In this document: in pieces, positions 11,525-64,000 of the stretch
How the letters are laid out: each line of letters starts with the position of its first letter
Position numbering within the stretch: the stretch's first letter is position 1
DNA from: a virus
Lineage: Duplodnaviria > Caudoviricetes
Strand: one strand, 5' to 3'
IMG/VR virus record: IMGVR_UViG_3300037424_000485
Span: 140,432-204,431 of that record
Length of the DNA stretch: 64,000 nt
Program-made: the position numbers and the translations under genes
The notes under the pieces: model-generated
The model's database searches: none
Seen by the model: only the letters and a program-made list of their open reading frames with translations
Told to the model about the DNA's origin: nothing

Positions 11525-12880
11525 TTATACCTTATAAATGTAAGCTTTACCACTTGATAAACCACCTGCATCGTCTTCCAGATAAGCACCAACAATTGCA
11601 TAGTTGTCTGATATAGCTATAGAGTATCCAAAGCTATCACCATCACTAGTGTTATAAGCATTAGGGTTGTCTAATGTACTAAGCAAAGCACCTGTAGCTG
11701 GATTGTAAATATAAGCTTTACCACTTGTCAAGCCACCTGCATCATCTTCATAAGGAGCACCAACAATAGCATAGCTGTCTGATATAGAAACATAATATCC
11801 AAAATAATCGCCTGTTGTTGAGCTATAAGCATTAGGATTGTCTAGTGTATGAAGCAAAGCACCTGTAACGCTGTTGTAAATATAAGCTATACCACTACCT
11901 AACCCACTAATATCATCTTCTTGATAAGCACCAACAATAGCATAAATATCTGAAATAGAAACAGAGTATCCAAAGCTATCACCAGCACTAGTGTCATATG
12001 CATTAGGGTTGTCTAATGTCCATAGCAAAGTACCTGTAGCATTATCGAAAATATAAGCTTTACCGCTACTTAAACCACCAGCATCATCTTCCAAATAAGC
12101 ACCAATAATAGCATAGCTATTTGATATAGAAACAGAGTATCCAAAATAATCACCATCAGTAGTGCCATATGCATTAGGGTTGTCAAGTGTCCATAATAGA
12201 GCACCTGTAGAAGAATTGTAAATATAAGCTTTACCACTACCTGTGCCACCTGCATCATCTTCATAAGGAGCACCAACAATAGCATAGCTATCTGATATAG
12301 CTATAGAGTATCCAAAACCATCAACAGCACTAGTGTCATAAGCATTAGGGTTATCTAGTGTCCATAATAGAACACCAGTAGCATTATCATAAATATAAGC
12401 TTTACCACTGTCCAATCCACCTGCATCATCTTCCAGCATAGCACCTACAATTGCATAGCTTTCTGAAATAGAAACAGCTCTACCAAAGTTATCATTAAGG
12501 CTAGTGTCATAAGCATTAGGGTTATCTAGTGTCCATAATAGAACACCAGTAGCATTATCGAAAATATAAGCTTTACCACTACCTGTTCCGCCTATATCAT
12601 CTTCAGCATAAGCACCTACAATTGCATAGCTATTTGATATAGATACAGCTCTACCAAAATAGTCATTAAGGCTAGTGTCATAAGCATTAGGGTTGTCTAG
12701 TGTGCGAAGAAAACTTATAAGTGCCTTACCATAGCCATCAGAAAGACTAATAGCACCTGTATAAACACCAAACAAATGTCTCAAATTAGCCTGTCCAAGG
12801 CTAATTAGTGTTGTTGATATTTCACTAAGCTCAGTATTTACTTGTGATAATGATATGCTTCCGCTTGCTGGTAATGTCAT
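11525..12880 (-). CDS. virion adhesin with 7 FG-GAP-like beta-propeller blades
   Basis: 7 x ~57-aa repeat LDNPNAY..FG..V.IS..YAIVGA..ED..G..SGKAYI; MTLPASGSISL N-terminus typical of fibre-associated proteins. Confidence 0.85.
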   Translation of the reverse strand: MTLPASGSISLSQVNTELSEISTTLISLGQANLRHLFGVYTGAISLSDGYGKALISFLRTLDNPNAYDTSLNDYFGRAVSISNSYAIVGAYAEDDIGGTGSGKAYIFDNATGVLLWTLDNPNAYDTSLNDNFGRAVSISESYAIVGAMLEDDAGGLDSGKAYIYDNATGVLLWTLDNPNAYDTSAVDGFGYSIAISDSYAIVGAPYEDDAGGTGSGKAYIYNSSTGALLWTLDNPNAYGTTDGDYFGYSVSISNSYAIIGAYLEDDAGGLSSGKAYIFDNATGTLLWTLDNPNAYDTSAGDSFGYSVSISDIYAIVGAYQEDDISGLGSGIAYIYNSVTGALLHTLDNPNAYSSTTGDYFGYYVSISDSYAIVGAPYEDDAGGLTSGKAYIYNPATGALLSTLDNPNAYNTSDGDSFGYSIAISDNYAIVGAYLEDDAGGLSSGKAYIYKV

Positions 12881-12886
12881 TAAATA

Positions 12887-15406
12887 TTACCCTAGTTTAG
12901 ATTCTAATATTTTAATTTTATTATTAAGTTCTTTTATAGCCTCTATTAATAGAGGGACTAATTTTTCATATTGAACAGTCATATAATTTTCACCTGATTT
13001 AGATGATATATATCCTAACTCTGCATCTCTATTAATATCAAATGGAGCTGGTTTTACTACTTGAGGGAGAATTAATTTTACCTCTTGAGCACTGATACCA
13101 ACCTCTATATCATCACTCATATATCCATATGATTTTGCTATACTATTAGCAGTATAATAAAAGCCATTTAGGGTACTGATCATATCAAGAGCGTTTTCAA
13201 TATTACCGATCTTATTTTTAAGTCTCATATCAGAAAAATAAGCAGTTATATTTCCAGTAGCTGTAATATCCCCTGTAGTAGCAAAACCTGCACTGGCTGA
13301 TTCTACTGTTATGTCATGAGATCCATCAAATTGAATACCACCTATAGTACGAGCTGTTTCAAGGGTTGTAGCAGTTGATGAATTACCTACAAGATCGCCG
13401 GTAAATGTTGTAGTTGTAAGTATACCGGCAGCAGAGTTAAAAGTTAAATTTGTACCTGTATGTATTTGCTGTATTCCCTCAGGACTATTAAAATATGCTA
13501 CATAACAGCTAGTATCTGCACTCTCATCAAATGATGTAATAGTGATAGCATTCCCAGATAAAGATTGTACATCTAACAGTTCTGACTGTGTTAAGTGATA
13601 ATACTCACCAGGGCCTCCTCCTTGTATGCTACCAAGGCCATTATGGAGAACAGGTGTTGATGATTGCAGTAATTGGGAAAAAGGACTTTGAATTTCAGTT
13701 ATATTTGAAGCACCTTGTAAATAAATTACCTTCCCTACTAATTGAGATCCTACACCTGTTGCTTCTGGTGGTAAAATTCCTGGTATCTCTGCCACTTGAG
13801 CATCTGTTAGTGTTGCGTACTGATCTTGTCCATATACAGAATATAAAGAAGATGAAGTACCTATAATTAAATAAATCCAATGAACACCGTAATATCCGGC
13901 TGTCATTGCTGAAAGTGTCCCTGTCCCGACATCAAAATAATTAACATCTATATCTGTTTGAGATGGCGTTCTTACCCAATCACCTCCCGACATATACAAT
14001 GTAGTGAATGTATCCGCTGCACTAGTATCAAATGATGGATGGGTTCTTTTAATATTAGCTAAGTAAAAAATACCAGCTGTTAGGTTCAATCTAAGAGCAC
14101 TAGTACCTTCTGTTAGAACTGTACCTCCTGGTTGATGTTCATACCCATTAACAAAGAAGTCTTTTCTTGAGTTATTTGCCTGATAATTAAGACCATATTC
14201 TCTCATATCAACAATATGTAGAGTATTTTCTATTCTATTAACAATCCATATAGGAACTTTTGTATATCCAGCCTCTACAGGCACTGAAGTTTCACATGTA
14301 ATTCTGGTAGTACCCATATTCCAATCAGCAAATAAATAGTTAGGTATATTATCTACCAATGATGATATACCACCAATACCTGTAGTTCCAGATGGTACAC
14401 TGAATTCTTCAAGTGATGTTGTGTATATATCAAGTCCTGTTCTTAATAATGCATTACCAGCGGATATAGTTACAGTTCCATTTCCATTATCAATAAGATC
14501 AAATCCACTAAGTGGTGTTGATGACATTACATGATCAAAATATGCCTGAACACTTGAAAGACTAGGTGTTTCTGAATGTGTTGGATAATCTATAGCTGAT
14601 GTTGGCCATGTATAATATAGTATATTATCTACATTAACCTGTACACTTTCAATTTCATTTTGTAATATAATAGCAGATACACTAAGTACATTTATATCAT
14701 AATTATTAGCATCTATAGCTGCTGATAGAAAATCTGTATTTAACTCTAAAGAATATACGCTTGATGATAGAGGCATCATATCAATAATTGATTGTGTATT
14801 AGCATCTATAGCTGCTGATAGAAATGCTGTATATGCTGTTAAATAACTACCATCTACAGTTAAATTATCAATAGATGCTGATAGAAATTCAGTATTTAAA
14901 TTAAGAGTATTTAGATGATTATCACTTACCAGTTTATTCCTAATAGTATCTATACTACCATCTACAATACTATATATATTATGAGCACCTTCATTATAGC
15001 TAGTTCCTGTTACATGCTCAGTCCAAATATTTGCATAGTAGTTACTAACCACCCTATCTTTGGTTTGACTATTATCTTTAACATCAACAGGATAATAATC
15101 AAGACTCTCATCAAAAACATCTACGTAATCTATATGACCTTTTGATATCCCTGCTTTATCCCATGCTATTTTTATTTTTTGAGATGAATCATATCCGCCA
15201 TCTTCTTGTAAATCTGCAATCCAGAATTCAAAAAATCCATTAGATAATGTTACTACTTGACCAACAGCATCAGGCGATCCGCCATCTTCTTGATGATATA
15301 TAGTAGCTTGTGTTTCACTACCTGCAAGATACACCTGTACAGTAGCACCTTCAATTGGTTGTCCTTCTCTGTTTATCAAATACTGCCATACATGTGCTCT
15401 AGCCAT
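12887..15406 (-). CDS. tail fibre with C-terminal intramolecular chaperone (peptidase S74)
   Basis: YFSDMRLK...GISAQEV...VQYEKLVPLLIEAIKEL. Confidence 0.88.
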   Translation of the reverse strand: MARAHVWQYLINREGQPIEGATVQVYLAGSETQATIYHQEDGGSPDAVGQVVTLSNGFFEFWIADLQEDGGYDSSQKIKIAWDKAGISKGHIDYVDVFDESLDYYPVDVKDNSQTKDRVVSNYYANIWTEHVTGTSYNEGAHNIYSIVDGSIDTIRNKLVSDNHLNTLNLNTEFLSASIDNLTVDGSYLTAYTAFLSAAIDANTQSIIDMMPLSSSVYSLELNTDFLSAAIDANNYDINVLSVSAIILQNEIESVQVNVDNILYYTWPTSAIDYPTHSETPSLSSVQAYFDHVMSSTPLSGFDLIDNGNGTVTISAGNALLRTGLDIYTTSLEEFSVPSGTTGIGGISSLVDNIPNYLFADWNMGTTRITCETSVPVEAGYTKVPIWIVNRIENTLHIVDMREYGLNYQANNSRKDFFVNGYEHQPGGTVLTEGTSALRLNLTAGIFYLANIKRTHPSFDTSAADTFTTLYMSGGDWVRTPSQTDIDVNYFDVGTGTLSAMTAGYYGVHWIYLIIGTSSSLYSVYGQDQYATLTDAQVAEIPGILPPEATGVGSQLVGKVIYLQGASNITEIQSPFSQLLQSSTPVLHNGLGSIQGGGPGEYYHLTQSELLDVQSLSGNAITITSFDESADTSCYVAYFNSPEGIQQIHTGTNLTFNSAAGILTTTTFTGDLVGNSSTATTLETARTIGGIQFDGSHDITVESASAGFATTGDITATGNITAYFSDMRLKNKIGNIENALDMISTLNGFYYTANSIAKSYGYMSDDIEVGISAQEVKLILPQVVKPAPFDINRDAELGYISSKSGENYMTVQYEKLVPLLIEAIKELNNKIKILESKLG

Positions 15407-15433
15407 TATAAACCTCTTTTTATTTCCTTATAA

Positions 15434-16711
15434 TTAATATGCTTCATTCCATTTTTCTATCTGAGCATAACTTCCAGATCCTGTTACTTTATAAGTGGCT
15501 CCTGGCGGTACATAGAATATTAAATGTGATGTATACTCCCACTGACATCCCCAGTTGACTGCTAAATTATTATCTACTAATGTTAGACCAGATCCTCTAT
15601 TTACATAAGCATACATGTATGCATAAAATGGAGAACATGCCGCATCATGGAAGCTTACATGAACTGCCATTACCTTTCCAGTATTATTAGTATACAAAAC
15701 ATCTTTTGATTTAGAAACCTCGCCTTGCCATGTACTGAAAGGAGATGATGTAGATACTTTACTGTCAATATATGCTTTAATACTTTGCTGAGTAGCAAGA
15801 TGAACATCAGAATTAGATGCCATGTTGTCTTCATCTTTAATAGCAGTTCCAGTTATCTGTGTATTTATAACAGGACTTGTTAAAGTCTTATTAGTCATTG
15901 TTATAGTGCCAGAGTCAACATATGCTTTAATACTTTGCTGAGTAGCAAGATGAACATCAGAATTAGATATCATATCATCTTCATCTAATACGGCAGTTCC
16001 CGACACACTTGTATTAAGAATTGAAGATGTTAAAGTCTTATTAGTCATATTGATAGTACCACTATCAACATATGCTTTAATACTTTGCTGAGTAGCAAGA
16101 TGAACATCAGAATTAGATATCATATCATCTTCATCTTTTATAGCAGTTCCAGTTATCCCTAATGCATTTAACTGTACATCGGTTCCATCAATACCATTAT
16201 CCAACACTTTGAATGTATTATCAGAAGCATATATATCACCTCTTAACTTACCAGCAATTTGAGCATCACCAATAACTGTTAATCCATTATAAACAGTTAA
16301 ATCACCCATAGTGGCAGATACAGCTGATAGCCCTACAGTTCCAGTATAATTTGCATATAAATTATTTAGTATGTTTACATCATGATATATAGTTATTATA
16401 CTACCATTATTAGCTGATAATGAATCTGTACTTACTCCATCACCATATAACTTCATCAATGTCCATCTTTGGAAACCTGTTTCATCATTAGGTTTAATAT
16501 AGTATGGCAGGTCATCACCGACTGTGATTTCAAAGGGATATGTAACCGCATTGTAAAAATACATACCGCCTTCATGTTCTGTCATTACAATATCATTATC
16601 ATTGATAACATCTGTTGAGATTTTATCAACAGAATATGCCGTATCAGAAGCACCAACAATATCATTAATTAATGTATATGCCCCCATTATTTTAATAGGT
16701 GTTACTGCCAT
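15434..16711 (-). CDS. tail fibre-like protein with three internal repeats
   Basis: 3 x DEDxMxSNSDVHLATQQSIKAY; distinct C-terminal tip domain. Confidence 0.7.
   Translation of the reverse strand: MAVTPIKIMGAYTLINDIVGASDTAYSVDKISTDVINDNDIVMTEHEGGMYFYNAVTYPFEITVGDDLPYYIKPNDETGFQRWTLMKLYGDGVSTDSLSANNGSIITIYHDVNILNNLYANYTGTVGLSAVSATMGDLTVYNGLTVIGDAQIAGKLRGDIYASDNTFKVLDNGIDGTDVQLNALGITGTAIKDEDDMISNSDVHLATQQSIKAYVDSGTINMTNKTLTSSILNTSVSGTAVLDEDDMISNSDVHLATQQSIKAYVDSGTITMTNKTLTSPVINTQITGTAIKDEDNMASNSDVHLATQQSIKAYIDSKVSTSSPFSTWQGEVSKSKDVLYTNNTGKVMAVHVSFHDAACSPFYAYMYAYVNRGSGLTLVDNNLAVNWGCQWEYTSHLIFYVPPGATYKVTGSGSYAQIEKWNEAY
15771..16118. repeat. three identical 48-bp cores at 150-bp period
   Basis: tatgctttaatactttgctgagtagcaagatgaacatcagaattagat at 15771, 15921, 16071. 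Confidence 0.9.
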
Positions 16712-16733
16712 ATATCCACTCCATTTAGCTAGA

Positions 16734-17171
16734 TCATCTCATAAGGGTATAATCAATTGATTTTTGAGAATATGAATCTTCCTCTTCTCTTATGAATAAA
16801 TCCTTTTGTTGATAGCACATGTCCTTTATTGTACTGTGCTTCTTTTGTTTTTCAATATACGCTACAAAAGCATTATAACATATCATAGTGATATAGTTGA
16901 AGATAGTACCTTTCTCTGGTTTGTAATTATGAAAATACTTAATTGTATTATGCAAACCTTCCATGATAAAATCTTCTTTGTATGTATACTGATTAAAATT
17001 TCCCTTGTTTGATAAATTTTTTGATATTTTAAATATCATCGTACCAAATTCTTCTGTAGTCTTTGCCGATCCATATATATATTTACCTGCTGATGTGTAT
17101 TGTGCAGTAAGTGTATATATATCAGCTTGCTTTTTTAAATCTTCAGGCTCTATATAATAATTATCTTCCAT
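16734..17171 (-). CDS. T4 gp55-like late transcription sigma factor
   Basis: YKEDFIMEG..NTIKYFHNYKPEK...FNYITMICYNAFVAYIEKQKK matches the gp55 pattern; many TATAAATA boxes in the window. Confidence 0.85.
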   Translation of the reverse strand: MEDNYYIEPEDLKKQADIYTLTAQYTSAGKYIYGSAKTTEEFGTMIFKISKNLSNKGNFNQYTYKEDFIMEGLHNTIKYFHNYKPEKGTIFNYITMICYNAFVAYIEKQKKHSTIKDMCYQQKDLFIREEEDSYSQKSIDYTLMR

Positions 17172-17220
17172 AAATTAAACTACCTCCTATAATAGTAATA
17201 ATTATAATTATTATATCATT

Positions 17221-17583
17221 TTAGGTATCGTTATGTAAATTAGATCTCTGTAGAGTTCTTTCAAACTCTTTTTGTATAATTGCAAGATCATTATTAAACT
17301 CATCAATCTTACGAAAAATTCTTTCTCTCTTTTTAGTATTTATATCAAGATGATTTATATTTTCTTCTTCCTTGATATAAAATCCAAATTTATATTTTCC
17401 TTTTAATATATTTTTAAATTGTTTATTACATTTTTCAATGGTTTCAAGAATATCTATATGTTGATATTTTTTAATCACATCAACATATAGATCATCTTTT
17501 TCAACAATTCCTATATTTAAGGAGCGAAATGTTAGTTCATCTGGTGTTTTAGAAGATAGTGTTATATATTTAAGAAATTTCAT
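17221..17583 (-). CDS. hypothetical protein
   Basis: ORF track; coupled to upstream gene. Confidence 0.6.
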   Translation of the reverse strand: MKFLKYITLSSKTPDELTFRSLNIGIVEKDDLYVDVIKKYQHIDILETIEKCNKQFKNILKGKYKFGFYIKEEENINHLDINTKKRERIFRKIDEFNNDLAIIQKEFERTLQRSNLHNDT

Positions 17584-20500
17584 AATGTATCTATCTTATA
17601 TATATATGTTTTACCACTGTATGTTCCGCCATCATCAGACTCGCTATAAGCACCTACGATTGCATGAGTATTAGATATTCCTACAGAATATCCGAATCTA
17701 TCACCAGCAGTAGTGTCATATGCATTAGGGTTGTCAAGTGTGTGAAGCAAAGCACCTGTAGCATTATCGAAAATATAAGCTTTACCACTATTTGTCCCAT
17801 CAATACTATCTTCTCTATAAGCACCTACAATAGCATAGCTATCTGATATAGATACAGAATATCCAAACTGATCATCAGCACTAGTGCCATATGCATTAGG
17901 GTTGTCTAATGTCCATAGCAAAGCACCAGTAGCATTATCATAAATATATGCTTTACCACTACCTAATCCACCAGCATCACCCTCTTGATAAGCACCTACA
18001 ATAGAATAAGTATCTGATATAGAAACAGATATACCAAAATAATCAACAGCACTAGTGTCATAAGCATTAGGGTTGTCTAGTGTCCATAATAGAGCACCAG
18101 TAGCATTATCATAAATATAAGCTTTACCACTGTCCAATCCACCTGCATCATCTTCAGCATAAGCACCTACAATAGAATAAGTATCTGATATAGAAACATT
18201 ATTTCCAAACTGATCACCAGCACTAGTGTCATAAGCATTAGGGTTGTCTAGTGTATGAAGCAAAGTGCCTGTGATAGTATTATAAATATAAGCTTTACCA
18301 CTATTTACACCTCCTATATCGTTTACTTCATAGGCACCTATAATGGTATAAGTATCATTAATTGATATAGAAGATGCAAATCCACCAGATAATGATGGAT
18401 TTGTTAATGTATGTAATAAGGAACCTGTAGATGTAGTATATATATATACAACACCATTTCCAATAATACCCCCTTCATAAGGTGTTGCAACAGCTGTATA
18501 AGTATCTGATATAGCTACAGAATATCCAAAGCTATCACCAGCACTAGTGTCATAAGCATTAGGGTTGTCTAATGTATGAAGTAAAACACCTGTTGCATTA
18601 TCAAATATATAAGCTTTACCACTATCTATACCACCACCAACACCATCCTCCTCAGGAGCACCAATAATAGCATAAGTATCTGATATAGCTATAGAGTATC
18701 CAAATTTATCCCAATCTGATGTTCCATATGCATTAGGGTTGTCTAATGTTAATATAGATACCTCAGGAACTGCTTCTATATATTCATTTGTTATCAACCA
18801 TGTATCACTATAAATACAACCCTCTACAGTTACAGTAACATCATTTCTAGCAGCACCAGTAGCACTTACTATATGAGAGAAGCCTTGACTGTAATATCCC
18901 ATATCTCCGACAAATACATATGCAGGATCGGATAATGTCCATGTTAGATCACCAGAAGCTGCATCTGTTTTTACATATACAATAGCTGTTTCATAAGGAT
19001 TAATAGTAAAATTAGATATAGATGTATTTATATCAATATAGGATATTCCCTCATACACTGTAGTTAATGTATTTTCTATATATACACCTGTTCCAGAGCT
19101 AACAGATATAGTCACATCTTCCCCATCAGACCCGGAACAAGATATACCTAGAGTCACAACATATAAATCTGGATTTAAAGGATCTATATAATATGAATCT
19201 GTTAAAGGGTGATATCCTGTATGAGTTTTAGTTCCAGTATCAGACCATACAACCCCCGGTAGTGTTGATGTAATATCCCATGTCAAAACAGAAGGATGTG
19301 CATTTGTGCTTATACTTATTAATGACTCAGACCCACATTGATTTATAGGAATTGTTGTTGATGTAGCACCATCTCCATCAACAACATCATTCCATGCTAT
19401 AGTTTCACCCATAGCTGTTTTAATAACCCTGTAATGCATTAAAAAATCTACATATGGTGGTTTGTATAAATCAGAAATGGTAGTTCTAAATTGTACTTTA
19501 TCTCTACTAATGATCTCTATTGTAGCAATATCCTCATACTCAGAAGCATAATCAAGACCCCAATTCATATAGTAATGTCTATTATCTCTTTTAAATTCTG
19601 AGATAACACCAGTTTCTAACACGTTTTGATCTCCATCAAGTAGCTTATATGTTGGGGAGTTTTGAATACCAAAACTATCAAATCCAATAAGCTCTTGAAG
19701 GATATTATAACTTCCACCATCTATTAATATAGCAGTACCGGACTGAGGAGTGCTAAATGTTAGCTTTGTAGACATGATGTTAAGCAATTTTATATCATCT
19801 GGTACTATGCTTACTCCATCTGTATCATATGATTGAATAAATATAAGCTTGCTTTCAAAATCATGATTTACAATACAGCTATTATCCACACCAGATGTTT
19901 CAAATGTCTGTAATGTTAATGTTTCATTTGATGATAAATGTACATTTATGGTATTAATACTTATATTTCCTATACCTATATCAATTTCTATATTGTTGTC
20001 ATCTATAATTGTTACAGAATCAATATCTATAAGACTCTGTTCTCCATTAATAGTATTATATTCATATACCTGTACAAAAAGATCATCCCTGTTTAAAGAA
20101 TGCTCTATTGATAGTATTTGATTACCACCAACATTTGTTGTTATAGGTGTTTTATTTGCTTTTTTAATAACAATATATCCTGACTTTAATCCACTAAATG
20201 TTACTAATACATTTTCGCCATTATTTGTTATTACTGTAGATATAGGTGTTATTAGATTATTTACTTTATCAAAGCATTGAATTATTAAATTCTGTGTATT
20301 TAGATCGGTATGAAATACCCACTCTGAAGCAGATACACACTGAAGTCCTATATATGTCGTTGCAGTATAATAATCTTGTGTAAATGATCTAGAATTTACA
20401 TATGTATTTGTATAACTCTCTCCTAAACTATTCTTATCACCATATAGAGACATAACATCCCCTGTTAAATCAACTATTGGTGAAAACACAACACTATATC

Positions 20501-22079: not shown

Positions 22080-23885
22080 TTATCCTTCGTTGATAACTAC
22101 ACAATGATTTATTGATAGTCTTGGAAATTGATCATATCGTAAAACAATTCTTCTTATACTATTATCATATAGATATCCACTACCTCCATCATCAATATAA
22201 GATTTTTCATAATGAGGAAATTGTTGTGTTGATGGAATACTTAGGTCATATATAGTTTCTGAATTTCCTGAAACAGGTGTAGTGTATATATTTAAATCTC
22301 TAAATAATAGATTTCTTATTCCTCTTGTATTAGTGAAATCATCTGTTGAAGATGTATTTGCAGGGTCTATAAGAAATTCAGTTATATCAAAGAAGTCTAT
22401 AGTTTCCCCAAACTTTCTAAACTCAAGACTAAAATAATATTCTAATTTATTTAATAGATCAGTCCTAACATTTGTAAAATTATAGTTTCTCTTTATTTTA
22501 ATTCCTATTTCAAACATAAAATATACAAAATTTGGAATAATAAGAGTTTCTAAAACATTTATAGCCTTTCTTTGTTCTAAGTATCTGATAATACCTGTAT
22601 TATAATCTGAATCATAAGATACTGGAACTTGTATATCAGCTGTAATAGGTGATGTTACTGTAGACAATCCCCACGCATGTGCTGATGTCTCTAAAGTCCC
22701 TAATTGAAATGATATACCATCTCCACTTAAAGGGGGTATAGTAGAGAAATATACTTTATTAAATAGAATTGGCTGACCTGCATTTATATCTTGTTCTCCC
22801 CATGCATAAGCAACAACAACATCTGTTCTCTCCTCAAGGTTTACCTTATAGTCATTTTTAGTTATGTTCCTAAGTTGAGATTGAATAATAGCTTTTGAAT
22901 TATTTCTTAAATCATCAAGTGTTTCTGGATTAGATGCCTGACTAGCAACATTGGTATTTGTTACTGTGTGTATATTTACTACATCAACAACAGAATTTAA
23001 TGTTAGATTTGAAATATTTATTCCTTCTAAACTGGTTATAACTCCTTTATCTATTATACCATTAACACCATTAGATTTAAGAACCTTAACTCTTATAATT
23101 GACTGTAATGATGGAACGTTCCTTGAGGTTGAAAAATCAATAACATACTGTTTATATTTATCATAATTAAATTGAAAAACATTATTACCCTCTGTAGTGG
23201 TAACACCAGAAAGACCCTCATAAAAATCAGACACGCGCTGCCATCCTGTATATTCAGTATCACCAGTTAGTGAGTTTTTAATAGAAACTTGGATACTTTC
23301 CATTGTGAAAGGATATATACCATAATCATATTTAAATAGAGGTAATAATATTTGATTATCTACTAACTCATCACCATAATATTCTAAATCAACAATAGCT
23401 CCTTCTCTAAGCTCTATTTCAAAAGAAGCATTGCCATTTATATCTACAGTGGTTAAAGCCTCAGATTCTGTATTTGGAACATAAGAATATATGATAGGCT
23501 GACCATCATCTGTTTCCAGACCAGTATCAATATATTGCCATGGCTCTATATATAGTTGATTACCTACTGGTAGTCCACTTACAGATATTGATAATGTTGT
23601 TTGTCCTGATACATATCCTTTTGGCTGATATCCCTTTGTTTTTACAATCCTATGCAATACTTCAAAAATATCTGTTGTATCTTCATAACTATTTTTAGCT
23701 AGTAGGTTTGTATAATAAGTGCTAAGATCACCAACATATGAGAATAGTTCAATAAGCATTGCTATATTAGAGCCTTCAAAGTTATAATCTTTAAAAACCT
23801 CGCTCTTACCCATAAGATTTTTTAATCTTGTTTGCAGGGAATTGAAATCAGTTTCTAGATATGATGGTTGAAGTTCATTTGACAT
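22080..23885 (-). CDS. baseplate wedge subunit gp6-like
   Basis: ETDFNSL...FKDYNFEGSN...GY.PK...QLRNITKNDY. Confidence 0.9.
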   Translation of the reverse strand: MSNELQPSYLETDFNSLQTRLKNLMGKSEVFKDYNFEGSNIAMLIELFSYVGDLSTYYTNLLAKNSYEDTTDIFEVLHRIVKTKGYQPKGYVSGQTTLSISVSGLPVGNQLYIEPWQYIDTGLETDDGQPIIYSYVPNTESEALTTVDINGNASFEIELREGAIVDLEYYGDELVDNQILLPLFKYDYGIYPFTMESIQVSIKNSLTGDTEYTGWQRVSDFYEGLSGVTTTEGNNVFQFNYDKYKQYVIDFSTSRNVPSLQSIIRVKVLKSNGVNGIIDKGVITSLEGINISNLTLNSVVDVVNIHTVTNTNVASQASNPETLDDLRNNSKAIIQSQLRNITKNDYKVNLEERTDVVVAYAWGEQDINAGQPILFNKVYFSTIPPLSGDGISFQLGTLETSAHAWGLSTVTSPITADIQVPVSYDSDYNTGIIRYLEQRKAINVLETLIIPNFVYFMFEIGIKIKRNYNFTNVRTDLLNKLEYYFSLEFRKFGETIDFFDITEFLIDPANTSSTDDFTNTRGIRNLLFRDLNIYTTPVSGNSETIYDLSIPSTQQFPHYEKSYIDDGGSGYLYDNSIRRIVLRYDQFPRLSINHCVVINEG

Positions 23886-23901
23886 TTATATGTTCCTTTA
23901 T
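23854..23901. repeat. 48-bp direct repeat, copy at gp6 start
   Basis: Identical to 24779-24826; contains SD and first codons MSNELQPSYL. Confidence 0.95.
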
Positions 23902-24810
23902 TTTTAACAAACAGTGTTTTTTATTTTCTATCCAGTCTTGTTCTTGAATTACCAATAAATCAATATTTTTTTCTTTGCATTGTTTTTTCTTAATTCTATC
24001 ATGTGATATGGTTTTTTCTAGAGAATGCCAATACTCACCATTAAATTCTATAGCTTTATTTAAAGATGGTATCCATATATCTAATTCAAGATTAAAACCT
24101 GTTTTAGGATTTAATATTTGTGTTCTATCGTTAGAAATTATATCAACGAATCTGGATATAAATATTTGTATTTCTTTCTCTGCCTTGGAAGATGTTTTTT
24201 CTCTACCACACCGAGGACATCTATTACCATTTAAGAAATTATCAAATCTAGCATCAAAAATATGACCTTTTCCACACTGTATTGTTATATTTTTCTTGTT
24301 ATTTAAATATTCATTACTTAATAGCTTATATCCCTCTTTTTCTATTATTTCTTTAACATATTCTATATCATTACTCATATTTTTACTTATTTCTTTTCTT
24401 TTACATATATTACATCTAGCATTACCTGATATAAAATTATTAAATCTTACACCATACGTATGGTTTTCTGGACACATAACTTCTAATTTAACAAATGCAT
24501 TTAAATATTCATTACTTAATAGCTTATATCCCTCTTTTTCTATTATTTCTTTCACAGAAGTATAAGTATGTTTTACACTTCCATTACATACATTACATCT
24601 CTGGCCCTGTTTAAATTTAGCCCATCTTGCTTTATAAATATGTCCTTTATTACATCTAATTATCAATTTAGAAGAAGAATTTAAATATTCATTACTTAAT
24701 AGCTTATATCCCTCTTTTTCTATCTCTCTTTTAATAAATGAATACTCCAATTTTCTAGTAGAATGTTTTTTATTGTTCTCTAGATATGATGGTTGAAGTT
24801 CATTTGACAT
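23875..24810 (-). CDS. free-standing putative homing endonuclease (Zn-finger repeats plus PD-(D/E)XK/Vsr-like domain)
   Basis: 3 x GYKLLSNEYLN...C..GH repeats; SKAEKEI...ELDIWIPSLNKAIEFNGEYWH; paralog of 42290-43180. Confidence 0.8.
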   Translation of the reverse strand: MSNELQPSYLENNKKHSTRKLEYSFIKREIEKEGYKLLSNEYLNSSSKLIIRCNKGHIYKARWAKFKQGQRCNVCNGSVKHTYTSVKEIIEKEGYKLLSNEYLNAFVKLEVMCPENHTYGVRFNNFISGNARCNICKRKEISKNMSNDIEYVKEIIEKEGYKLLSNEYLNNKKNITIQCGKGHIFDARFDNFLNGNRCPRCGREKTSSKAEKEIQIFISRFVDIISNDRTQILNPKTGFNLELDIWIPSLNKAIEFNGEYWHSLEKTISHDRIKKKQCKEKNIDLLVIQEQDWIENKKHCLLKIKEHINVK

Positions 24811-24826
24811 TTATATGTTCCTTTAT
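24779..24826. repeat. 48-bp direct repeat, copy at nuclease start
   Basis: Identical to 23854-23901. Confidence 0.95.
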
Positions 24827-25191
24827 CTTGTTCTAAAAATATAATCTATTTTTTCTACATTATCTGAATTTATAAGACTATAATATAGTGTTGTTTTGTA
24901 TTGATTGTTGTCTTCATCCATCTCAACATTAAAACTCTCGATATAAATTCTATCATCCCATTTTCTTATAGCTGATACCAACCCTTCTCCAAGTCTTCTG
25001 GATGTTTCTTCGTCCATAGGCTCAAAGAGAATACCATTGATAAATATAAATGCGTCTGGGAGCATTCTTCTTGATCCCTTAATTGTTGAAAATATATTAA
25101 TAAGCGAATTTTTAATAGCTTCTAAATCAGTCATTGCTTTTATATCGCCATCTTGCTGTTTGGTTAAAAAAATATCAATATCTTTCCACAT
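24823..25191 (-). CDS. baseplate wedge subunit gp25-like
   Basis: AIKNSLINIFSTIKGSRRMLPD...LFEPMD...IRKWDDRI. Confidence 0.88.
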   Translation of the reverse strand: MWKDIDIFLTKQQDGDIKAMTDLEAIKNSLINIFSTIKGSRRMLPDAFIFINGILFEPMDEETSRRLGEGLVSAIRKWDDRIYIESFNVEMDEDNNQYKTTLYYSLINSDNVEKIDYIFRTR

Positions 25192-25209: not shown

Positions 25210-25217
25210 TATTTATA
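25210..25217 (-). promoter_or_regulatory. T4-type late promoter TATAAATA
   Basis: Exact box upstream of gp25. Confidence 0.65.
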
Positions 25218-26254: not shown

Positions 26255-27277
26255 TTATAATGATGCATTTACATCTGATGAGCTTTGCATGTGCGGTTTT
26301 CCTGTAAATGCACATATACACTGGCCTGTTACCACACCACTATTTATACCACCACCGCCATCTATATCCACTGTAGCCGCTGTAATATTACATTGTCCTG
26401 TTACCACAATGTCACAGTCACCAGTAACATTAATTGCTAGATTTCCTGTTATATTATCAGTGTTGTCAACGCCAATGGTTCTGGTAACACTTCCATTAAC
26501 TTTTGATGTTTCATTTCCAGAGACAAGGAATGTTTTATTCCCATCTATTGTCTCATTTTTATTTTGTTTAATATGGATATTGTTATTTCCCATAACTATC
26601 TCATATTTATCTTTATTATTTTTTATAATCATAGTTCCATCATTATTTATTTCTACATAGCTATTTGACGAATGAAATATATGTATGCGTCTGCTTCCAG
26701 GTGTGCTATCTAACTCTATAATATTACCACCATGTGTAGCCAAGACAACATTATTAGGATATATAGTCTCATAGAATGATGGTGGTTCTGACCAAGAGTC
26801 TCCATCAGCTGTTTCTACATCTTCATCTAGGTTGTTATTTTTACCTTCAACGATAGTGCCTTCAGAAACGCCTCTAACGAGTCTATGCACGTCAGGTTCA
26901 TCTAACCTATGCTTTGTTGGATAAACACCGTCAGGATCATTAAACCCCATAGATGGATCTGATTCTTGAGTAGGCTTGCCTGGAACACTTGCAAAATAAA
27001 CTGGCTGATTAGGATGTCCATTTTCAAAAAATAAAAATACATGACTTCCCTGTACAGGAACAGCCCATGTGCCAAACCCAGATATAGATCCACCCATTAT
27101 AGAATTTGCAGGGGTGGCCCATGGCAAATCCTCTATAAGTACCCCATCTTTACCTTTGTTTATCTTGGTTTTATGGGGTGTATGTACACCAAAAACACGT
27201 ATTTTACATCTCCCCATCTTCTCTGGGTCAATGTTGTTCTCTACAACACCCCTAAACACACCCAATAAATCTTTCAT
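26255..27277 (-). CDS. central baseplate spike (gp5-like OB-fold plus beta-helix, no lysozyme)
   Basis: FRGVVENNIDPEKMGRCKIRVFG..LPWA; YPNNVV.T.GG..IELD.TPG.RRI. Confidence 0.88.
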   Translation of the reverse strand: MKDLLGVFRGVVENNIDPEKMGRCKIRVFGVHTPHKTKINKGKDGVLIEDLPWATPANSIMGGSISGFGTWAVPVQGSHVFLFFENGHPNQPVYFASVPGKPTQESDPSMGFNDPDGVYPTKHRLDEPDVHRLVRGVSEGTIVEGKNNNLDEDVETADGDSWSEPPSFYETIYPNNVVLATHGGNIIELDSTPGSRRIHIFHSSNSYVEINNDGTMIIKNNKDKYEIVMGNNNIHIKQNKNETIDGNKTFLVSGNETSKVNGSVTRTIGVDNTDNITGNLAINVTGDCDIVVTGQCNITAATVDIDGGGGINSGVVTGQCICAFTGKPHMQSSSDVNASL

Positions 27278-41601: not shown

Positions 41602-42309
41602 TTACCTTCCAAATATTTTTTCATCAATAGATGAGTAATCATCTATTGCATCACTTTCTTCTTCAATATACTCATTGTCTCCATATTCCAATAATTCATC
41701 ATATATAGGTGTTCCATCTGCCGCACTGCTGGTAGCTGTAAGTGTTGCTGTTGGGTCTAATTTATGCAATCTGTATGCCTCTAGTGACTCACTGCTATAT
41801 CTGAAAGGTCTAAGTATTAATTCCCAAATCAGCTTCTTAGCTTGAAAGATTTGCTGTTCCGCCCCCACATTCACTACCTCATACTTCCTGTTATTCCATT
41901 TAGTATGAATTACCATTCCTGGTATAGGGTGAAGATTACCAGCACTTAATGATGGTATTGATAAAAATGTATCTGTACAGTCCCTTGCAAACATAGTCTT
42001 AGGAATGACAGCATATTGTAGTGTCTCATCACTGGTAATACCAAAAGACTCAAGTATACTTGTTTCTTCTGTTGGTTCATATATTAGTTTTGTAGTGATA
42101 GCATTTGATAGATTTGTATTTGGATCTTCACCATATAATTTATCCCAGCTAACAATAGGAAAATATATATCGATTTCAAATCCGACAACATCCGTAAATT
42201 CATTAATAAATGAGTCATATAGATAATGCTCTGGATTGTCTGATGAAATATCATAAAGCCTCCAAAGTGGTGTTCCTGCTAAAGCATTTTTAACTGTTTC
42301 TATTGACAT
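41602..42309 (-). CDS. neck protein gp14-like
   Basis: EFTDVVGFEIDIYFP...DKLYGED...PIPG..I...N.RKYEV..V. Confidence 0.85.
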   Translation of the reverse strand: MSIETVKNALAGTPLWRLYDISSDNPEHYLYDSFINEFTDVVGFEIDIYFPIVSWDKLYGEDPNTNLSNAITTKLIYEPTEETSILESFGITSDETLQYAVIPKTMFARDCTDTFLSIPSLSAGNLHPIPGMVIHTKWNNRKYEVVNVGAEQQIFQAKKLIWELILRPFRYSSESLEAYRLHKLDPTATLTATSSAADGTPIYDELLEYGDNEYIEEESDAIDDYSSIDEKIFGR

Positions 42310-43180
42310 CTATAAAATCCTCAATCTTATCAAAACAGCAATATTTATTATTAATCCAATCACTTTCATTAATAACCAATAAATCTATTCCTTTTTCTTG
42401 ACATTGTTTTATTTTTATTATATCTTTTTCTTTTATCATATCTAGAGAATGCCAATACTCACCATTAAATTCTATAGCTTTATTTAAAGATGGTATCCAT
42501 ATATCTAATTCAAGATTAAAACCTGTTTTAGGATTTAATATTTGTGTTCTATCGTTTGGTAAGAATGATATCCTATCTGATAAAAAACTCTGTATTTCTT
42601 TCTCTGCCTTAGAAGATGTTTTTTCTCTATCACAATTAGGGCATCTCTTACCTTGTTGAAAATTATACCATCTCACCTTGTATTTATGATTATTATTACA
42701 TTTTATATTTATTGGTGACTGTGCATTTACATATTCTTTGCTTAATAGGATATATCCTTCATTTTCTATCTGTTCTTTTACATAATCATATGATAGTTTT
42801 TCTCTTCCACAACAAGAAATACATCTCTTACCTTGTTGAAAATTTCCATATGTTATAAGACTTTCATGTCCTTTGTTGCATTTAACACTTAAAATACTTG
42901 TAGTATTTACATATTCTTTGCTTAATAGGACATATCCTTCATTTTCTATCTGTTCTTTTACATAATCATATGATAGTCTTCGTGTGTTATGTGATTTTTC
43001 ATTACCACAAATTCTACATCTATGTCCTTTTTTAAAAGACCAAAATGTAGGATGATATATATGTCCTTTATTACATTTAACTTCTAATTTAGAATTAGAT
43101 CCTATATAATTTTCTGATAGTAGTTCATATCCTTCATTTTCTATCTGTTCTTTTACAAATTCATATGTATCCTTCTTCAT
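42290..43180 (-). CDS. free-standing putative homing endonuclease (Zn-finger repeats plus PD-(D/E)XK/Vsr-like domain), start MKKDTY
   Basis: 3 x YVKEQIENEGY.LLS..Y repeats; 116 bp identical to 24017-24132 at 42441-42556. Confidence 0.8.
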   Translation of the reverse strand: MKKDTYEFVKEQIENEGYELLSENYIGSNSKLEVKCNKGHIYHPTFWSFKKGHRCRICGNEKSHNTRRLSYDYVKEQIENEGYVLLSKEYVNTTSILSVKCNKGHESLITYGNFQQGKRCISCCGREKLSYDYVKEQIENEGYILLSKEYVNAQSPINIKCNNNHKYKVRWYNFQQGKRCPNCDREKTSSKAEKEIQSFLSDRISFLPNDRTQILNPKTGFNLELDIWIPSLNKAIEFNGEYWHSLDMIKEKDIIKIKQCQEKGIDLLVINESDWINNKYCCFDKIEDFIDVNRNS

Positions 43181-43185
43181 ATATG

Positions 43186-43193
43186 TATTTATA
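43186..43193 (-). promoter_or_regulatory. late promoter TATAAATA 5 nt before ATG
   Basis: TATAAATA-CATAT-ATG, no SD. Confidence 0.6.
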
Positions 43194-43861: not shown

Positions 43862-46126
43862 TTATAAATCATATATGTAAGCTTTACCACTGTTTAGATA
43901 GCCATCCTCATCCTCCAATGGCGCACCAATAATAACATGTGTATCTGATATAGATACAGTATATCCAAACTGATCACCGGTACTTGTTCCGAATGCATTA
44001 GGATTGTCTAATGTATGAAGTAAAATACCTGTAGCATTATCATAAATATAAGCTTTACCGCTTGATAAACCACCTGCATCGTCTTCTAAATAAGCACCTA
44101 CAATTGCATAGCTATCTGATATAGCTACAGAATATCCAAACCAATCGTTGGCAGTAGTGCTATATGCATTAGGGTTGTCAAGTGTCCACAATAGAGCACC
44201 TGTAGCATTATCATAAATATAAGCTTTACCGCTTGATAAACCACCTGCATCGTCTTCTAAATAAGCACCTACAATTGAATATGTATTAGATATAGCTACG
44301 GCCCTACCAAAGCTATCACCAGCACTAGTACCATAAGCATTAGGATTGTCAAGTGTATGAAGCAAAGCACCTGTAACATTATCGAAAATATAAGCTTTAC
44401 CGCTACTTAAACCACCTGCATCGTCTTCTTGATAGGCTCCAACTATTGAATAGTTGCCATGAGTAGAAACCGAATATCCAAATCTATCAGCAGCACTAGT
44501 TCCATATGGATTTGGATTGTATAGTGTATGAAGTAAAGATCCATTTGTAGTATTGAATATATATGCTCGTCCACTATCAGCCTGAGTGTCATCTACACCA
44601 TAAGCACCAACAATAGCATATGAATTTGAAATACTTACTGATCTTCCAAAAAAACCACCTGTACTATATGCGTTTAGTGTATGAAGCAAAGCACCTGTAA
44701 CGCTGTTGTAAATATAAGCTTTACCAGATTGAGTAGATTCATAATGAGCACCAATAATAGCATAAGTATCTGATATAGCTACACAATATCCAAAATAATC
44801 TTCAGTGCTGGTTCCATAAGCATTAGGATTGTTTAATGTATGGAGTAAAGCACCTGTAGTATTATCATAAATATAAGCCTTACCGCTTTGTACTCCTCCA
44901 GCATCATCCTCTTGATAAGCACTTACAATTGAATAATTATCTGATATATCAACACTATAACCGAATCTATCTTCAGTGCTAGTTCCATATGGATTTGGAT
45001 TGTTTAATATGTTAGAGGGAGCTGATATTATTGTCGGGATTCTATAAATATAAGCTTTACCGCTACTTAAACCACCAGCATCGTCTTCTAAATAAGCACC
45101 TACAATTGCATAGTTGTCTGAGATAAATACAGATCTGCCAAAATAGTCATTAAGGCTAGTGTTATAAGCATTAGGGTTATCTAATGTACTAAGCAAAGCA
45201 CCAGTGGCTGGATTAAAAATATAAGCTTTACCGCTACTTAAACCACCAGCATCATCCTCACCATAAGCACCTACAATTGCATAATTATCTGATATAGCTA
45301 CAGAATATCCAAAGCTATCACCAGCACTAGTGTCATAAGCATTAGGGTTGTCTAGTGTATGAAGCAAAGTGCCTGTAGCATTATCGAAAATATAAGCTTT
45401 ACCGCTACTTAAACCACCAGCATCATCCTCACCATAAGCACCTACAATTGCATAATTATCTGATATAGATATATCTATCCCGAATTGATCACTAGCAGTA
45501 GTGCTATAAGCATTAGGGTTGTCTAATGTCCATAGCAAAGCACCTGTAGATGGATTGTAAATATAAGCTTTACCACTTGATAATCCACCGGCATCGTCTT
45601 CTTGATGTGATCCCACAATAGCATATGTATTAGAGATAGCTACATTCTGACCAAAGTTATCATTAAGGCTAGTGTCATAAGCATTAGGGTTGTCTAATGT
45701 CCATAGCAAAGCACCTGTAGAAGGATTATAGATATAAACCACACCACTGCCAACATCACCAGCAGGGCTTTTTTCATTATAAGCACCTACAATAGCATAG
45801 CTTTCTGATATCCCAACAGAATATCCAAAAACATCAACAGCAGTAGTGCCATATGCATTAGGGTTATCTAATGTACTAAGCAAAGCACCAGTGGCTGGAT
45901 TAAAAATATAAGCTTTACCACTTGTCAAGCCACCTGCATCATCCTCACCATAAGCACCTACAATTGCATAGCTATCTGATATAGCTATAGAGTATCCAAA
46001 GCTATCACCATCACTAGTGTTATAAGCATTAGGGTTGTCTAATGTTTGTGATAGTGTGATATTAATAGGGGTTTCCGGTAGTGTTTCAGGTATACTACCA
46101 CACATCATTAAATCTCTATATCCCAT
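43862..46126 (-). CDS. virion adhesin with 13 FG-GAP-like blades (6+7)
   Basis: 13 repeats with one linker YIYRIPTIISAPSNIL. Confidence 0.85.
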   Translation of the reverse strand: MGYRDLMMCGSIPETLPETPINITLSQTLDNPNAYNTSDGDSFGYSIAISDSYAIVGAYGEDDAGGLTSGKAYIFNPATGALLSTLDNPNAYGTTAVDVFGYSVGISESYAIVGAYNEKSPAGDVGSGVVYIYNPSTGALLWTLDNPNAYDTSLNDNFGQNVAISNTYAIVGSHQEDDAGGLSSGKAYIYNPSTGALLWTLDNPNAYSTTASDQFGIDISISDNYAIVGAYGEDDAGGLSSGKAYIFDNATGTLLHTLDNPNAYDTSAGDSFGYSVAISDNYAIVGAYGEDDAGGLSSGKAYIFNPATGALLSTLDNPNAYNTSLNDYFGRSVFISDNYAIVGAYLEDDAGGLSSGKAYIYRIPTIISAPSNILNNPNPYGTSTEDRFGYSVDISDNYSIVSAYQEDDAGGVQSGKAYIYDNTTGALLHTLNNPNAYGTSTEDYFGYCVAISDTYAIIGAHYESTQSGKAYIYNSVTGALLHTLNAYSTGGFFGRSVSISNSYAIVGAYGVDDTQADSGRAYIFNTTNGSLLHTLYNPNPYGTSAADRFGYSVSTHGNYSIVGAYQEDDAGGLSSGKAYIFDNVTGALLHTLDNPNAYGTSAGDSFGRAVAISNTYSIVGAYLEDDAGGLSSGKAYIYDNATGALLWTLDNPNAYSTTANDWFGYSVAISDSYAIVGAYLEDDAGGLSSGKAYIYDNATGILLHTLDNPNAFGTSTGDQFGYTVSISDTHVIIGAPLEDEDGYLNSGKAYIYDL

Positions 46127-48072
46127 TATAAGCTACCTATTGCAGCTACCTGACCATGCCATGTAGTTCCACCATTATTTGTAGTGAATACTAATATATC
46201 AATGCCAGAAGCTGTAAGTGTCGGAGCTATAGCAGAAGGCCATTTAACACCAGGCCAAGTAACCACTGATGAACCGCCATTTGTTAAATATAAAACAAAA
46301 CCGCTCTGTCTTCCAGTAGTAGCAGGATTTGTAAACGCAAATGATGTTGTTGTTGCCACGGTAGCAGTAACAACATTACCAAGTGATAAATCAATAGGCT
46401 GATTTGCAGCTGCCACACCAATAATATTTACAACCTCTTCTACCTGTTTAAATAAAGGTTTTGTAAGAGACTTGTTGGTTAATACTTGGATATCTGTGGT
46501 TCCTACAATAACACCACTGGGAGCTACCTTAGTAGAGTCCTTAATTAATTTTCCTGTTATGCCATTAAACAAAGGTATTGTTGAATCAAGAGAGGAAGTA
46601 GGGCCTGTTACTTTATTATCCAAAGCTGTTTGTACATCTGTTGTTATGGGTAGATTTGTAGCATGATATCCATCTAATAAATCTGCATCTAGACCAGATG
46701 TACTACCATCGACAGTTTTTATAGCTGTGAGAATTTCTGAAGCTGTTTGGTCGGCTGTGGCACTAGGCTCGATAAGATTTAATTTAGAAAGAAGAGAATC
46801 AGTAAATGCATTTGTATCTGGATTTGCTTCATATAATGTTTTTATCTGAAGTCCATTAAAATCTATATAGTTTAAGATAATAGACCAGTCGGTTAATGCT
46901 ACTGGATCATTAATATTGGCAAAAATAAAATCACCAGTATTTAAATTCAAATCAAAGAATGTTCCAGATGTTGTTATTGTATATAGATCCCCTGATACTA
47001 TTCCAGGAATTGGAGATACGTCTAAATCTGGTGTATTTGTAAGGGCATCATAACCACCTTTGAAATGAATAGCAGAAACTACAAACTGATCAACATATGT
47101 TTTTACGCTTTGTTGTGTTGGTATTTTATTAGCAGTATTTGAGATCATATTGTCTTCATCAATAACAAAAGACATAAGTGATGCATTTGTACTGTCAAAC
47201 ATTACAGCACCAGCAGCAGATACATTAACTGATCCTGTTACATCAGCAGATACAGATATGGTATCTAATTTTTCTTTATCTAATAATGTTAATATAGCAT
47301 TTGTTGTTCCACTACTGATATTATCTGCATTTGTAGTATCTATATTAACAACATTCCCTAAATCAACATCAGATGCAGTTACCTGATGGGGGTTTCCTGA
47401 TACTAAAGTTGTATGAGTATATGTATTATCCCAATTATTGCTATTGTTAGGTATTACAGAGTAAAAACCAAAACCATTGGTTATCATTATACCGTCTGAT
47501 GTAAAATCATAATCTGTTAATATAGCCCCACTAACAGACATCCCTAGAATTTGTTCCTCTAGATCAGTGGTGAATGATGCAGTTGTAGCTTGTAGAATAT
47601 CTGAATATGCCTGTATTGTTGTACCTATAAAACTCTCACTAAAAGAATCCCCACTAACAGATAGACTAGAAATCCACTCAGCTTCAGAGCCTATAAAACC
47701 ATTGTTTATAGCTATCTCATAAGCACTAATACCATCAGCTCCATCAGCTCCACTAACAGATAGACTAGAAATCCACTCAGCTTCAGAGCCTATAAAACCA
47801 TTGTTTATAGCTATCTCATAAGCACTAATACCATCAGCTCCATCAGCTCCACTAACAGATAGACTAGAAATCCACTCAGCTTCAGAGCCTATAAAACCAT
47901 TGTTTATAGCTATCTCATAAGCACTCGAACCTTTCTGACCTATGGTAACAATAGCTGTTATTGTTTCCTCTATGGTGGTTATAGGTATAGTGTATGTAGG
48001 CGGCTCTGTGGCTAGAGGGACTACAACTATAGTTGTGTCTATGGTGGTTATAGGTATGCTTATAGTTGTCAT
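46126..48072 (-). CDS. fibre-like structural protein
   Basis: SAYEIAINNGFIGSEAEW repeats; SGLDADLLDG motif; C-terminal domain WPSAIAPTLT..G.DILVF. Confidence 0.75.
   Translation of the reverse strand: MTTISIPITTIDTTIVVVPLATEPPTYTIPITTIEETITAIVTIGQKGSSAYEIAINNGFIGSEAEWISSLSVSGADGADGISAYEIAINNGFIGSEAEWISSLSVSGADGADGISAYEIAINNGFIGSEAEWISSLSVSGDSFSESFIGTTIQAYSDILQATTASFTTDLEEQILGMSVSGAILTDYDFTSDGIMITNGFGFYSVIPNNSNNWDNTYTHTTLVSGNPHQVTASDVDLGNVVNIDTTNADNISSGTTNAILTLLDKEKLDTISVSADVTGSVNVSAAGAVMFDSTNASLMSFVIDEDNMISNTANKIPTQQSVKTYVDQFVVSAIHFKGGYDALTNTPDLDVSPIPGIVSGDLYTITTSGTFFDLNLNTGDFIFANINDPVALTDWSIILNYIDFNGLQIKTLYEANPDTNAFTDSLLSKLNLIEPSATADQTASEILTAIKTVDGSTSGLDADLLDGYHATNLPITTDVQTALDNKVTGPTSSLDSTIPLFNGITGKLIKDSTKVAPSGVIVGTTDIQVLTNKSLTKPLFKQVEEVVNIIGVAAANQPIDLSLGNVVTATVATTTSFAFTNPATTGRQSGFVLYLTNGGSSVVTWPGVKWPSAIAPTLTASGIDILVFTTNNGGTTWHGQVAAIGSL
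47651..47925. repeat. perfect 99-bp tandem repeat (~2.8 copies)
   Basis: Units start at 47651, 47750, 47849. Confidence 0.92.
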
Positions 48073-63910: not shown

Positions 63911-64000
63911 CCATGCCCCACTTGTGACTGTTGTTATATTTGATACTGTTGTGAGATGATTAATATGTTGTGTGTCATCTCCTTCTAGTGTCGCTATTGT

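Follow-up and report, generated by a model that had tools for sequence, protein, structure and literature searches.

How can a selfish nuclease gene enter a compact, essential operon of a phage without destroying the genes on either side? This question is raised by the junction between gp25 and gp6 in a 64,000-nucleotide stretch of the genome of an uncultured T4-like phage (Caudoviricetes; IMG/VR record IMGVR_UViG_3300037424_000485, positions 140,432 to 204,431; hereafter the window). Here, a gene for a predicted homing-endonuclease-type protein of 311 amino acids (aa) separates the genes of two baseplate wedge proteins and is bracketed by two identical copies of 48 nucleotides (nt). The locus shows a selfish nuclease gene entering a late baseplate operon, the most compact and essential part of the genome, without harm to gp25 or gp6: the nuclease uses the resident start signal, and gp6 receives the spare.

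The two copies, located on the minus strand at window positions 23854..23901 and 24779..24826, are identical at 48 of 48 positions and spaced by 925 nt. Identity ends on both sides of the repeat, local alignment gaining only 3 bases with one mismatch, and the alignment of one junction against the other scored 48.5, as compared with 14.5 for the best of 200 shuffles. In the whole genome of 204,431 bp, the repeat is present exactly twice, even when up to three mismatches are allowed, and it is the sole exact repeat pair of at least 20 nt that brackets a single gene. Read along the minus strand, it consists of an A, which is the final base of the last sense codon of gp25, the TAA stop codon of gp25, the ribosome-binding site (RBS) AGGAAC, a short spacer, and the ATG of gp6 with 29 further bases, which encode MSNELQPSYL and supply two bases of the E codon (about 10.7 codons). 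The last triplet of the spacer is an in-frame TAA, directly 5' of the ATG in both copies.

All genes of the region lie on the minus strand and follow one another, in the direction of transcription, as gp5 (26255-27277, from the open reading frame (ORF) call), two small ORFs, gp25 (24823..25191, 122 aa), the endonuclease gene (23875..24810), gp6 (22080..23885, 601 aa) and a fibre-like protein of 1498 aa. The upstream copy of the repeat (24779..24826) ends gp25, whose stop codon it contains, and starts the endonuclease ORF. The downstream copy (23854..23901) starts gp6 (MSNELQPSYLETDF...) and, in another frame, encodes the last eight residues of the endonuclease (IKEHINVK) and its TGA stop codon (23875-23877), which lies 8 nt past the gp6 ATG. 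Only 877 nt (23902-24778) are specific to the endonuclease; the inserted 925 bp are made up of these and one spare 48-nt copy of the junction. The stop codon of gp25 is retained, and the spare copy restores a complete gp6. A preliminary description of this DNA had reported two identical 48-bp copies holding the Shine-Dalgarno sequence and the first codons of gp6, a nuclease that begins MSNELQPSYLE like gp6, and a nuclease C-terminus that is encoded out of frame by the second copy, with an overlap onto the start of gp6; the repeat comparison and the ORF calls bear out each of these points.

To place the repeat in an evolutionary context, relatives of the phage had to be reached via a protein database and an alignment-based scan: the DNA of the locus matched none of 50,697 phage records, and a single-protein query of viral contigs returned no relative better than 38%. 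The nearest gp6 proteins are about 60% identical, and 80 metagenomic relatives (L106-L185) were scanned. In two phages devoid of the insert, L022 (gp6 60% identical) and L023 (48%), the gp25 stop codon is followed by 9 nt and the gp6 ATG. The junction of L022, present as a single copy (gp25 stop, GGAAC, ATG, MPNNELIPSYLE), aligns base for base with the repeat, which identifies the repeat as the native target sequence. The N-terminus of gp6 is itself conserved among relatives, reading MPNNELIPSYLE in L022, MANYLTPDYLT in L023 and MGLELNPSYLE in L021, a phage with a separate insert. To judge by these sequences, the first 11 residues of the endonuclease are clearly derived from gp6.

The endonuclease has no usable start of its own. 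Members of its family start with M-x-KK-x-TYEYVK; in an alignment of 25 members, the equivalent point falls about 17 residues into the present protein, where there is no ATG. A TTG within the gene, at codon 21, was weighed as a substitute start and rejected, as no RBS precedes it. The reading frames thus show that translation of the protein would begin in the original initiation region of gp6 and yield a fusion with the 11 gp6 residues MSNELQPSYLE at its front, in agreement with the earlier claim that the nuclease uses the duplicated gp6 start. The notion, also put forward in the preliminary description, that it thereby acquires a gp6 N-terminal tag fares less well: the borrowed segment amounts to 11 residues, falls within residues 1-20, which are disordered in the AlphaFold2 model, and stops before the first Pfam domain of gp6 (residues 14-60), so that nothing points to a function as a tag.

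The other end of the protein is borrowed as well. Family members end in ...C-x-x-K-I-K-x-F-(I/L), and here this tail is encoded by the repeat from I304 onwards (IKEHI), with the conserved Ile (I304) and the Ile/Leu position kept and the conserved aromatic residue replaced by His. Written in AT-rich codons, the family tail resembles the stop/RBS sequence of the junction, making microhomology at the 3' joint plausible. For annotation this implies a warning: endonucleases of this kind can bear borrowed residues at both the N- and the C-terminus, and assemblies may break at the repeats.

Regarding expression, an octamer of the T4-type late promoter (TATAAATA, 25210..25217, minus strand) lies 19 nt before the gp25 start. 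Since no other octamer was found on this strand between gp25 and gp6, nor any terminator-like site, gp25, the endonuclease and gp6 probably share one late transcript. Within the insert we found no convincing promoter or terminator, and the repeat itself gave no match. RNA folding of the two repeat contexts, with z scores of -0.9 and +0.5 relative to shuffles, provided no evidence of masked starts. The endonuclease would accordingly be expected to be made late, with an initiation strength similar to that of gp6.

The protein itself has the make-up of a phage homing endonuclease. Pfam identified CapR (PF21817) and DUF4379 zinc ribbons, repeated three times in tandem, and, below threshold, a restriction-endonuclease-like C-terminus. 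Pfam, alignment and model place the three ribbon modules, of about 60 aa each, at residues ~21-77, 81-137 and 147-203 (24202..24750, minus strand), a region that holds internal 133-nt repeats. Residues ~205-311 (23878..24198, minus strand) correspond, by alignment, profile and fold match, to a Vsr-like nuclease domain of the EDxHD type. A profile of 25 homologues matches the catalytic domain of I-Bth0305I (PDB 3R3P) with an E-value of 4.4e-6, and the AlphaFold2 model (mean predicted local distance difference test score, 87) reaches a template modelling (TM) score of 0.73 against 3r3p_A and of 0.47-0.52 against Vsr (1cw0/1vsr). The Foldseek E-values of the whole multi-domain model are weak (9e-3), and the fold call is based on the target-normalised TM score together with the sequence profile. 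Residues E242, D244, N257, H262 and D271 are invariant across the 25 aligned family members; in I-Bth0305I, N257 aligns with N208, H262 with H213 (Ala in the crystal) and D271 with D222, which form, with D196, the composite catalytic motif of that enzyme (PMC3239194), and the family residues corresponding to all four are invariant. PHROGs assigns the endonuclease to families whose annotation is HNH or homing endonuclease. Sequence and model therefore converge on a predicted free-standing nuclease of the homing-endonuclease type, as the preliminary description had supposed, in which zinc ribbons are joined to a Vsr-like EDxHD domain with all catalytic residues in place, and the enzyme looks active. 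The family comprises 682 database matches, with three to seven ribbon modules per protein, and a modular make-up of this kind has been described for phage homing endonucleases (PMC10448857).

In this clade of phages, inserts accumulate at the gp25/gp6 junction, which is thus a hot spot, although the empty site is the norm. In about 60 of the 80 relatives, gp25 and gp6 are spaced by -1 to ~40 nt, so that the single-copy relatives that the preliminary description had proposed to look for do exist. About 15 of the 80 carry inserts of 0.14-1.6 kb at the junction, among them unrelated HNH endonucleases (L164/L174, L165, L107) and ORFs of 364-534 aa of unknown function (L129, L141/L177). Around these HNH and other inserts, the scan of the 80 relatives revealed no flanking repeat of at least 17 nt.

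Endonucleases of the same family as ours occupy the gp25/gp6 junction in L021/L106 and in L038. In L021 (2911-4001; also L106), the gene is split into ORFs of 133 and 215 aa, has its own start and lacks an exact repeat; this copy is probably decaying. In L038, an exact junction repeat of 21 nt (about 31 nt with mismatches) is present, and the endonuclease and gp6 both begin with MSEI. At another locus, in L031, a gene of this family follows a 746-aa gene and precedes that of the large terminase, with an 18-nt duplication of the junction: the two upstream ORFs both end in VGL*, and endonuclease and terminase both start with MP. The 746-aa gene (L031 254-2494) presumably encodes an ATPase of the PhoH type into which an intein-like segment (LLGDGG motif) is inserted.

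These cases form part of a broader trend. In viral contigs, an exact repeat of at least 17 nt linking start and end was found for 9 of 64 family genes, two tandem paralogues included, as against 1 of 133 neighbouring genes of at least 200 aa (Fisher p 2e-4). Apart from the two tandem-paralogue cases, the flanking repeats of the relatives measure 17 to 38 nt, and the lengths observed in the family are 17-21, 29, 38 and 48 nt. Duplications are thus some 20 times more frequent around genes of this family than around their neighbours, which hints at a regular outcome of insertion and not at a curiosity.

We favour, with a probability of roughly 0.55, an account in which the endonuclease gene settled in the gp25/gp6 junction, in-frame and 32 nt into gp6, via recombination at short homologies. 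Such recombination might have taken the form of illegitimate double-strand-break repair or of template switching; the two joints would have overlapped on the target, giving rise to the duplication, and selection would have kept only those outcomes in which the two essential genes survived and the endonuclease obtained a start. From there, the gene could have spread to the empty junctions of co-infecting relatives by ordinary break-and-repair homing. Precise loss would be possible too: as noted in the preliminary description, recombination between the repeats would excise the gene exactly, and it would give back the very empty site seen in relatives. The route has precedents, since illegitimate break repair at microhomologies is a documented path of ectopic invasion in T4 (PMC2988022), and microhomology has been noted at the ends of the repeat units in the segmental amplification around segB in T6 (PMC13096335).

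We count in favour of this account the patchy, selfish distribution of the family, the hot spot, the recurrence of the architecture in L038 and L031, the enrichment of flanking repeats in the family, and a 116-nt tract within the endonuclease gene (24017..24132, minus strand). The tract is identical to positions 42441-42556 of a paralogous endonuclease gene in the window, against a background identity of about 66%, and this indicates recent ectopic gene conversion. Short ectopic conversion thus appears from the sequence to be active in this genome, and the perfect identity of the two 48-nt copies may accordingly stem from an insertion that is young or from conversion, of recent date, between copies that were already in place.

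Several points weigh against the favoured account. Microhomology at the joints is inferred and not seen. The structure of the locus rests on one assembly and on k=31 contigs, which cannot phase a repeat of 48 nt. The nuclease activity of this protein is a prediction. Moreover, a perfect duplicate leaves intact any target contained in the gp25 end plus the repeat, or in the repeat plus gp6; as such a target would still be intact in the occupied genome, and the phage would risk cutting itself if it lay at the insertion point, the true target must be longer, located elsewhere or protected. The phylogeny is of limited help. Identity among the three junction endonucleases is only 40-55%, and they fail to form a group in a tree of the nuclease half, which pairs the present gene with its in-genome paralogue and not with those of L038 or L021. 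This tree is weakly resolved and confounded by the 116-nt tract; it fits independent invasions of the hot spot as well as one old insertion, and a young duplication as well as an old, homogenised one.

An alternative that we regard as doubtful, yet worth considering, is that a 925-bp circle carrying the endonuclease and one copy of the repeat, released by recombination between the repeats, integrated by a single crossover at the 48-nt junction of an empty genome and thereby regenerated both repeats, as has been proposed for PeSL minicircles of T4-type phages. The geometry fits: on the circle, the 936-nt ORF would both begin and end in the single repeat, and the empty site corresponds to exactly one copy of the repeat. 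It is also known that recombination of the T4 type works on patches of less than 50 bp and that genes flanked by PeSL repeats form encapsidated minicircles (PMC2839356). However, a circle accounts for spread and not for the first duplication, and it would make an active-looking nuclease superfluous. The repeat does not behave as a dispersed regulatory cassette either, being limited to two copies in the genome with no promoter or terminator and no stable hairpin. The stretch was found in two sediment metagenome DNA runs (no RNA run being listed), whose k=31 contigs contained no joint of a circle or of an empty site and no other joints, variants or indels, a weak test for a repeat of 48 nt; in the contigs of one of them, run X1, the depth of the endonuclease equals that of its flanks.

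A second alternative, which we consider unlikely, is that the duplication is old and that selection or repeated conversion has maintained an identity from which the phage benefits, for example in securing equal initiation signals for co-regulated late translation, re-initiation coupling or a gp6-derived N-terminal peptide. That L038 and L021 carry genes of the same family at the same junction would agree with this, as would their 3' ends, which likewise read a relic of the gp25 stop/RBS sequence (IRNFIDE in L038 and KINKH in L021, versus KIKEH here), and conversion tracts do occur in this genome. On the other hand, the three endonucleases are diverged and fail to cluster, and L021 has no exact repeat and L038 one of just 21 nt. 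The 11-residue peptide, moreover, is disordered in the model and does not reach the length of any gp6 domain, and low expression is the usual state of homing endonuclease genes (PMC2988022).

The family might also have an insertion route of its own, which would create long target duplications of variable length (17-48 nt) at gene junctions, by widely spaced nicks on the two strands or by minicircles of about 0.9 kb. We hold this to be rather improbable. If true, the family would represent a transposon-like or integron-cassette-like class of mobile genes instead of ordinary homing endonuclease genes, and in its version with ~0.9-kb minicircles a single junction copy would serve as both start and end of the ORF.

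Very unlikely, in our view, is the long staggered cut suggested in the preliminary description, in which nicks about 48 nt apart would be followed by joining of the element and duplication of the target through gap filling. Vsr acts as a nickase, and at most non-cognate sites I-Bth0305I nicked a single strand only (PMC3239194); the enrichment of direct repeats in the family points in the same direction. The same paper, however, gives the cognate cut of I-Bth0305I a 2-base 5' overhang. Together with the variable repeat lengths in the family and the absence of inverted repeats at the ends of the insert, as found by sequence analysis, this makes a fixed long staggered cut difficult to maintain. 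No transposase domain was detected in the endonuclease by Pfam, and the other paralogues in this genome lack a flanking repeat, none above shuffle level being found at its five other endonuclease genes.

The assembly deserves a separate comment. The borders of the repeat coincide, as expected, with breaks between the k=31 unitigs of run X1; the 48-nt unitig has a depth of 48, the five nuclease-specific unitigs have depths of 22-29, the gp6 unitig has a depth of 26, and a 116-nt unitig common with the paralogue reaches 57. Part of the gp25 side is uncovered in this run. These depths fit two copies of the repeat per genome and the presence of the nuclease in essentially all genomes of that population. 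That a mis-join created the repeat, or put the nuclease between gp25 and gp6, is extremely unlikely: other assemblies do break beside the repeat (the 3.5-kb contig L020, identical in sequence but from a different sample, stops 15 nt short of it and is uninformative on the junction) and the k=31 contigs leave it unphased, but its unitig is at double depth with all four flanks at single depth, it completes both reading frames exactly, the endonuclease has no other usable start, and the independent contig L038 has the same architecture.

The arrangement can be compared with several known systems. The seg and mob genes of T4 have their own starts. The endonuclease described here resembles them in being a single selfish gene between conserved genes of a T4-type phage, presumably spread by double-strand-break repair with co-conversion of flanks; unlike them, it is without a start of its own, whether lost or never present, opens with 11 codons taken from the gene downstream and has the same 48 bases on either side. 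The endonucleases mobA at gene 60 of T4 and mobE at nrdA of Aeh1 are insertions within essential genes or at their margins that involve translational bypassing or gene splitting. The gp25/gp6 case is similar to these in that an insertion at an essential gene comes with extra sequence keeping the host gene expressible, and different in that a simple duplication of the start region suffices. In a review of T4 (PMC2988022), the seg and mob genes are described as intergenic with down-regulated expression, and the word stem "duplicat" is absent from the text. In the literature searched, we found no publication describing target duplication around free-standing phage endonuclease genes; a Xanthomonas phage paper that came up deals with duplicated domains of tail fibres.

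With the EDxHD/Vsr-like homing endonucleases, such as I-Bth0305I of Bacillus phage 0305phi8-36 and Hef of T4-related phages, the protein shares the 3R3P profile, the fold and the catalytic E/D/N/H/D residues, as well as a patchy, phage-borne distribution beside essential genes. It differs from I-Bth0305I in that its DNA-binding part consists of three CapR/DUF4379 ribbons instead of NUMOD/helix-turn-helix elements, and in that the gene is free-standing and not intron-encoded. A flanking duplication or a borrowed start is not described in the parts of the I-Bth0305I paper that we searched (PMC3239194).

The closest parallel in terms of gene ends comes from fungal mitochondria, where mobile ORFs (mORFs) carry a duplicated gene terminus in Allomyces atp6 and in Glomus atp6, atp9, cox2 and nad3 (PMC3630166). 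The statement of the preliminary description that free-standing homing endonucleases normally spread without target duplication is therefore too strong. In both systems, the endonuclease ORF is in phase with the host gene and a second copy keeps the host gene whole, here gp6. The phage arrangement nevertheless differs from the mORF cassettes: theirs involves the C-terminus, with diverged copies of foreign origin (64-81% nt identity), whereas the present one involves the 5' end with its translation signals, in native copies that are 100% identical.

PeSL cassettes and minicircles of T4-type phages (PMC2839356, PMC4122927) likewise have short direct repeats with expression signals flanking a dispensable gene, and recombination between the repeats would lead to precise loss and a small circle in either case. 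Those repeats, however, are dispersed promoter-plus-terminator motifs in hyperplastic early regions, whereas here we deal with a unique translation-initiation junction, present in two copies in a late baseplate operon. The gp25/gp6 locus offers a system in which the poorly documented route of free-standing endonucleases to new sites, their precise exit and their carriage on small circles are all testable.

The phage has two more genes with a Vsr-like nuclease domain, and at least two of its HNH-type nucleases bear ribbons similar to those of the present protein; this is domain shuffling, within one phage, between DNA-binding arrays and two nuclease domains. The paralogue in the window encodes 296 aa (42290..43180, minus strand). 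It has its own start, located 5 nt downstream of a late octamer TATAAATA (43178-43193), and no flanking duplication, and its 3' end overlaps the RBS and ATG of the next gene. Further endonuclease genes lie outside the window at genome positions 67039-67941, 81631-82629, 83482-84342 and 85209-86573; among them are at least two of the HNH type with the same zinc ribbons and one more Vsr-like copy.

Some features of the record were noted in passing. The contig repeats its opening ~248 bases (genome positions 1-248) at its end (window 63752-64000) as exact matches of 126 and 127 nt offset by one base, which probably makes the record, classed as linear with 85% completeness, a full genome that is circularly permuted. 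In the window, positions 11600-18600 and 44000-46000 contain many exact repeats of 35-80 nt between very large fibre-like genes, with units of about 57 aa (DNPNAYGTS...GKAYIY), and a tandem repeat with a period of 99 nt occupies positions 47651-47950.

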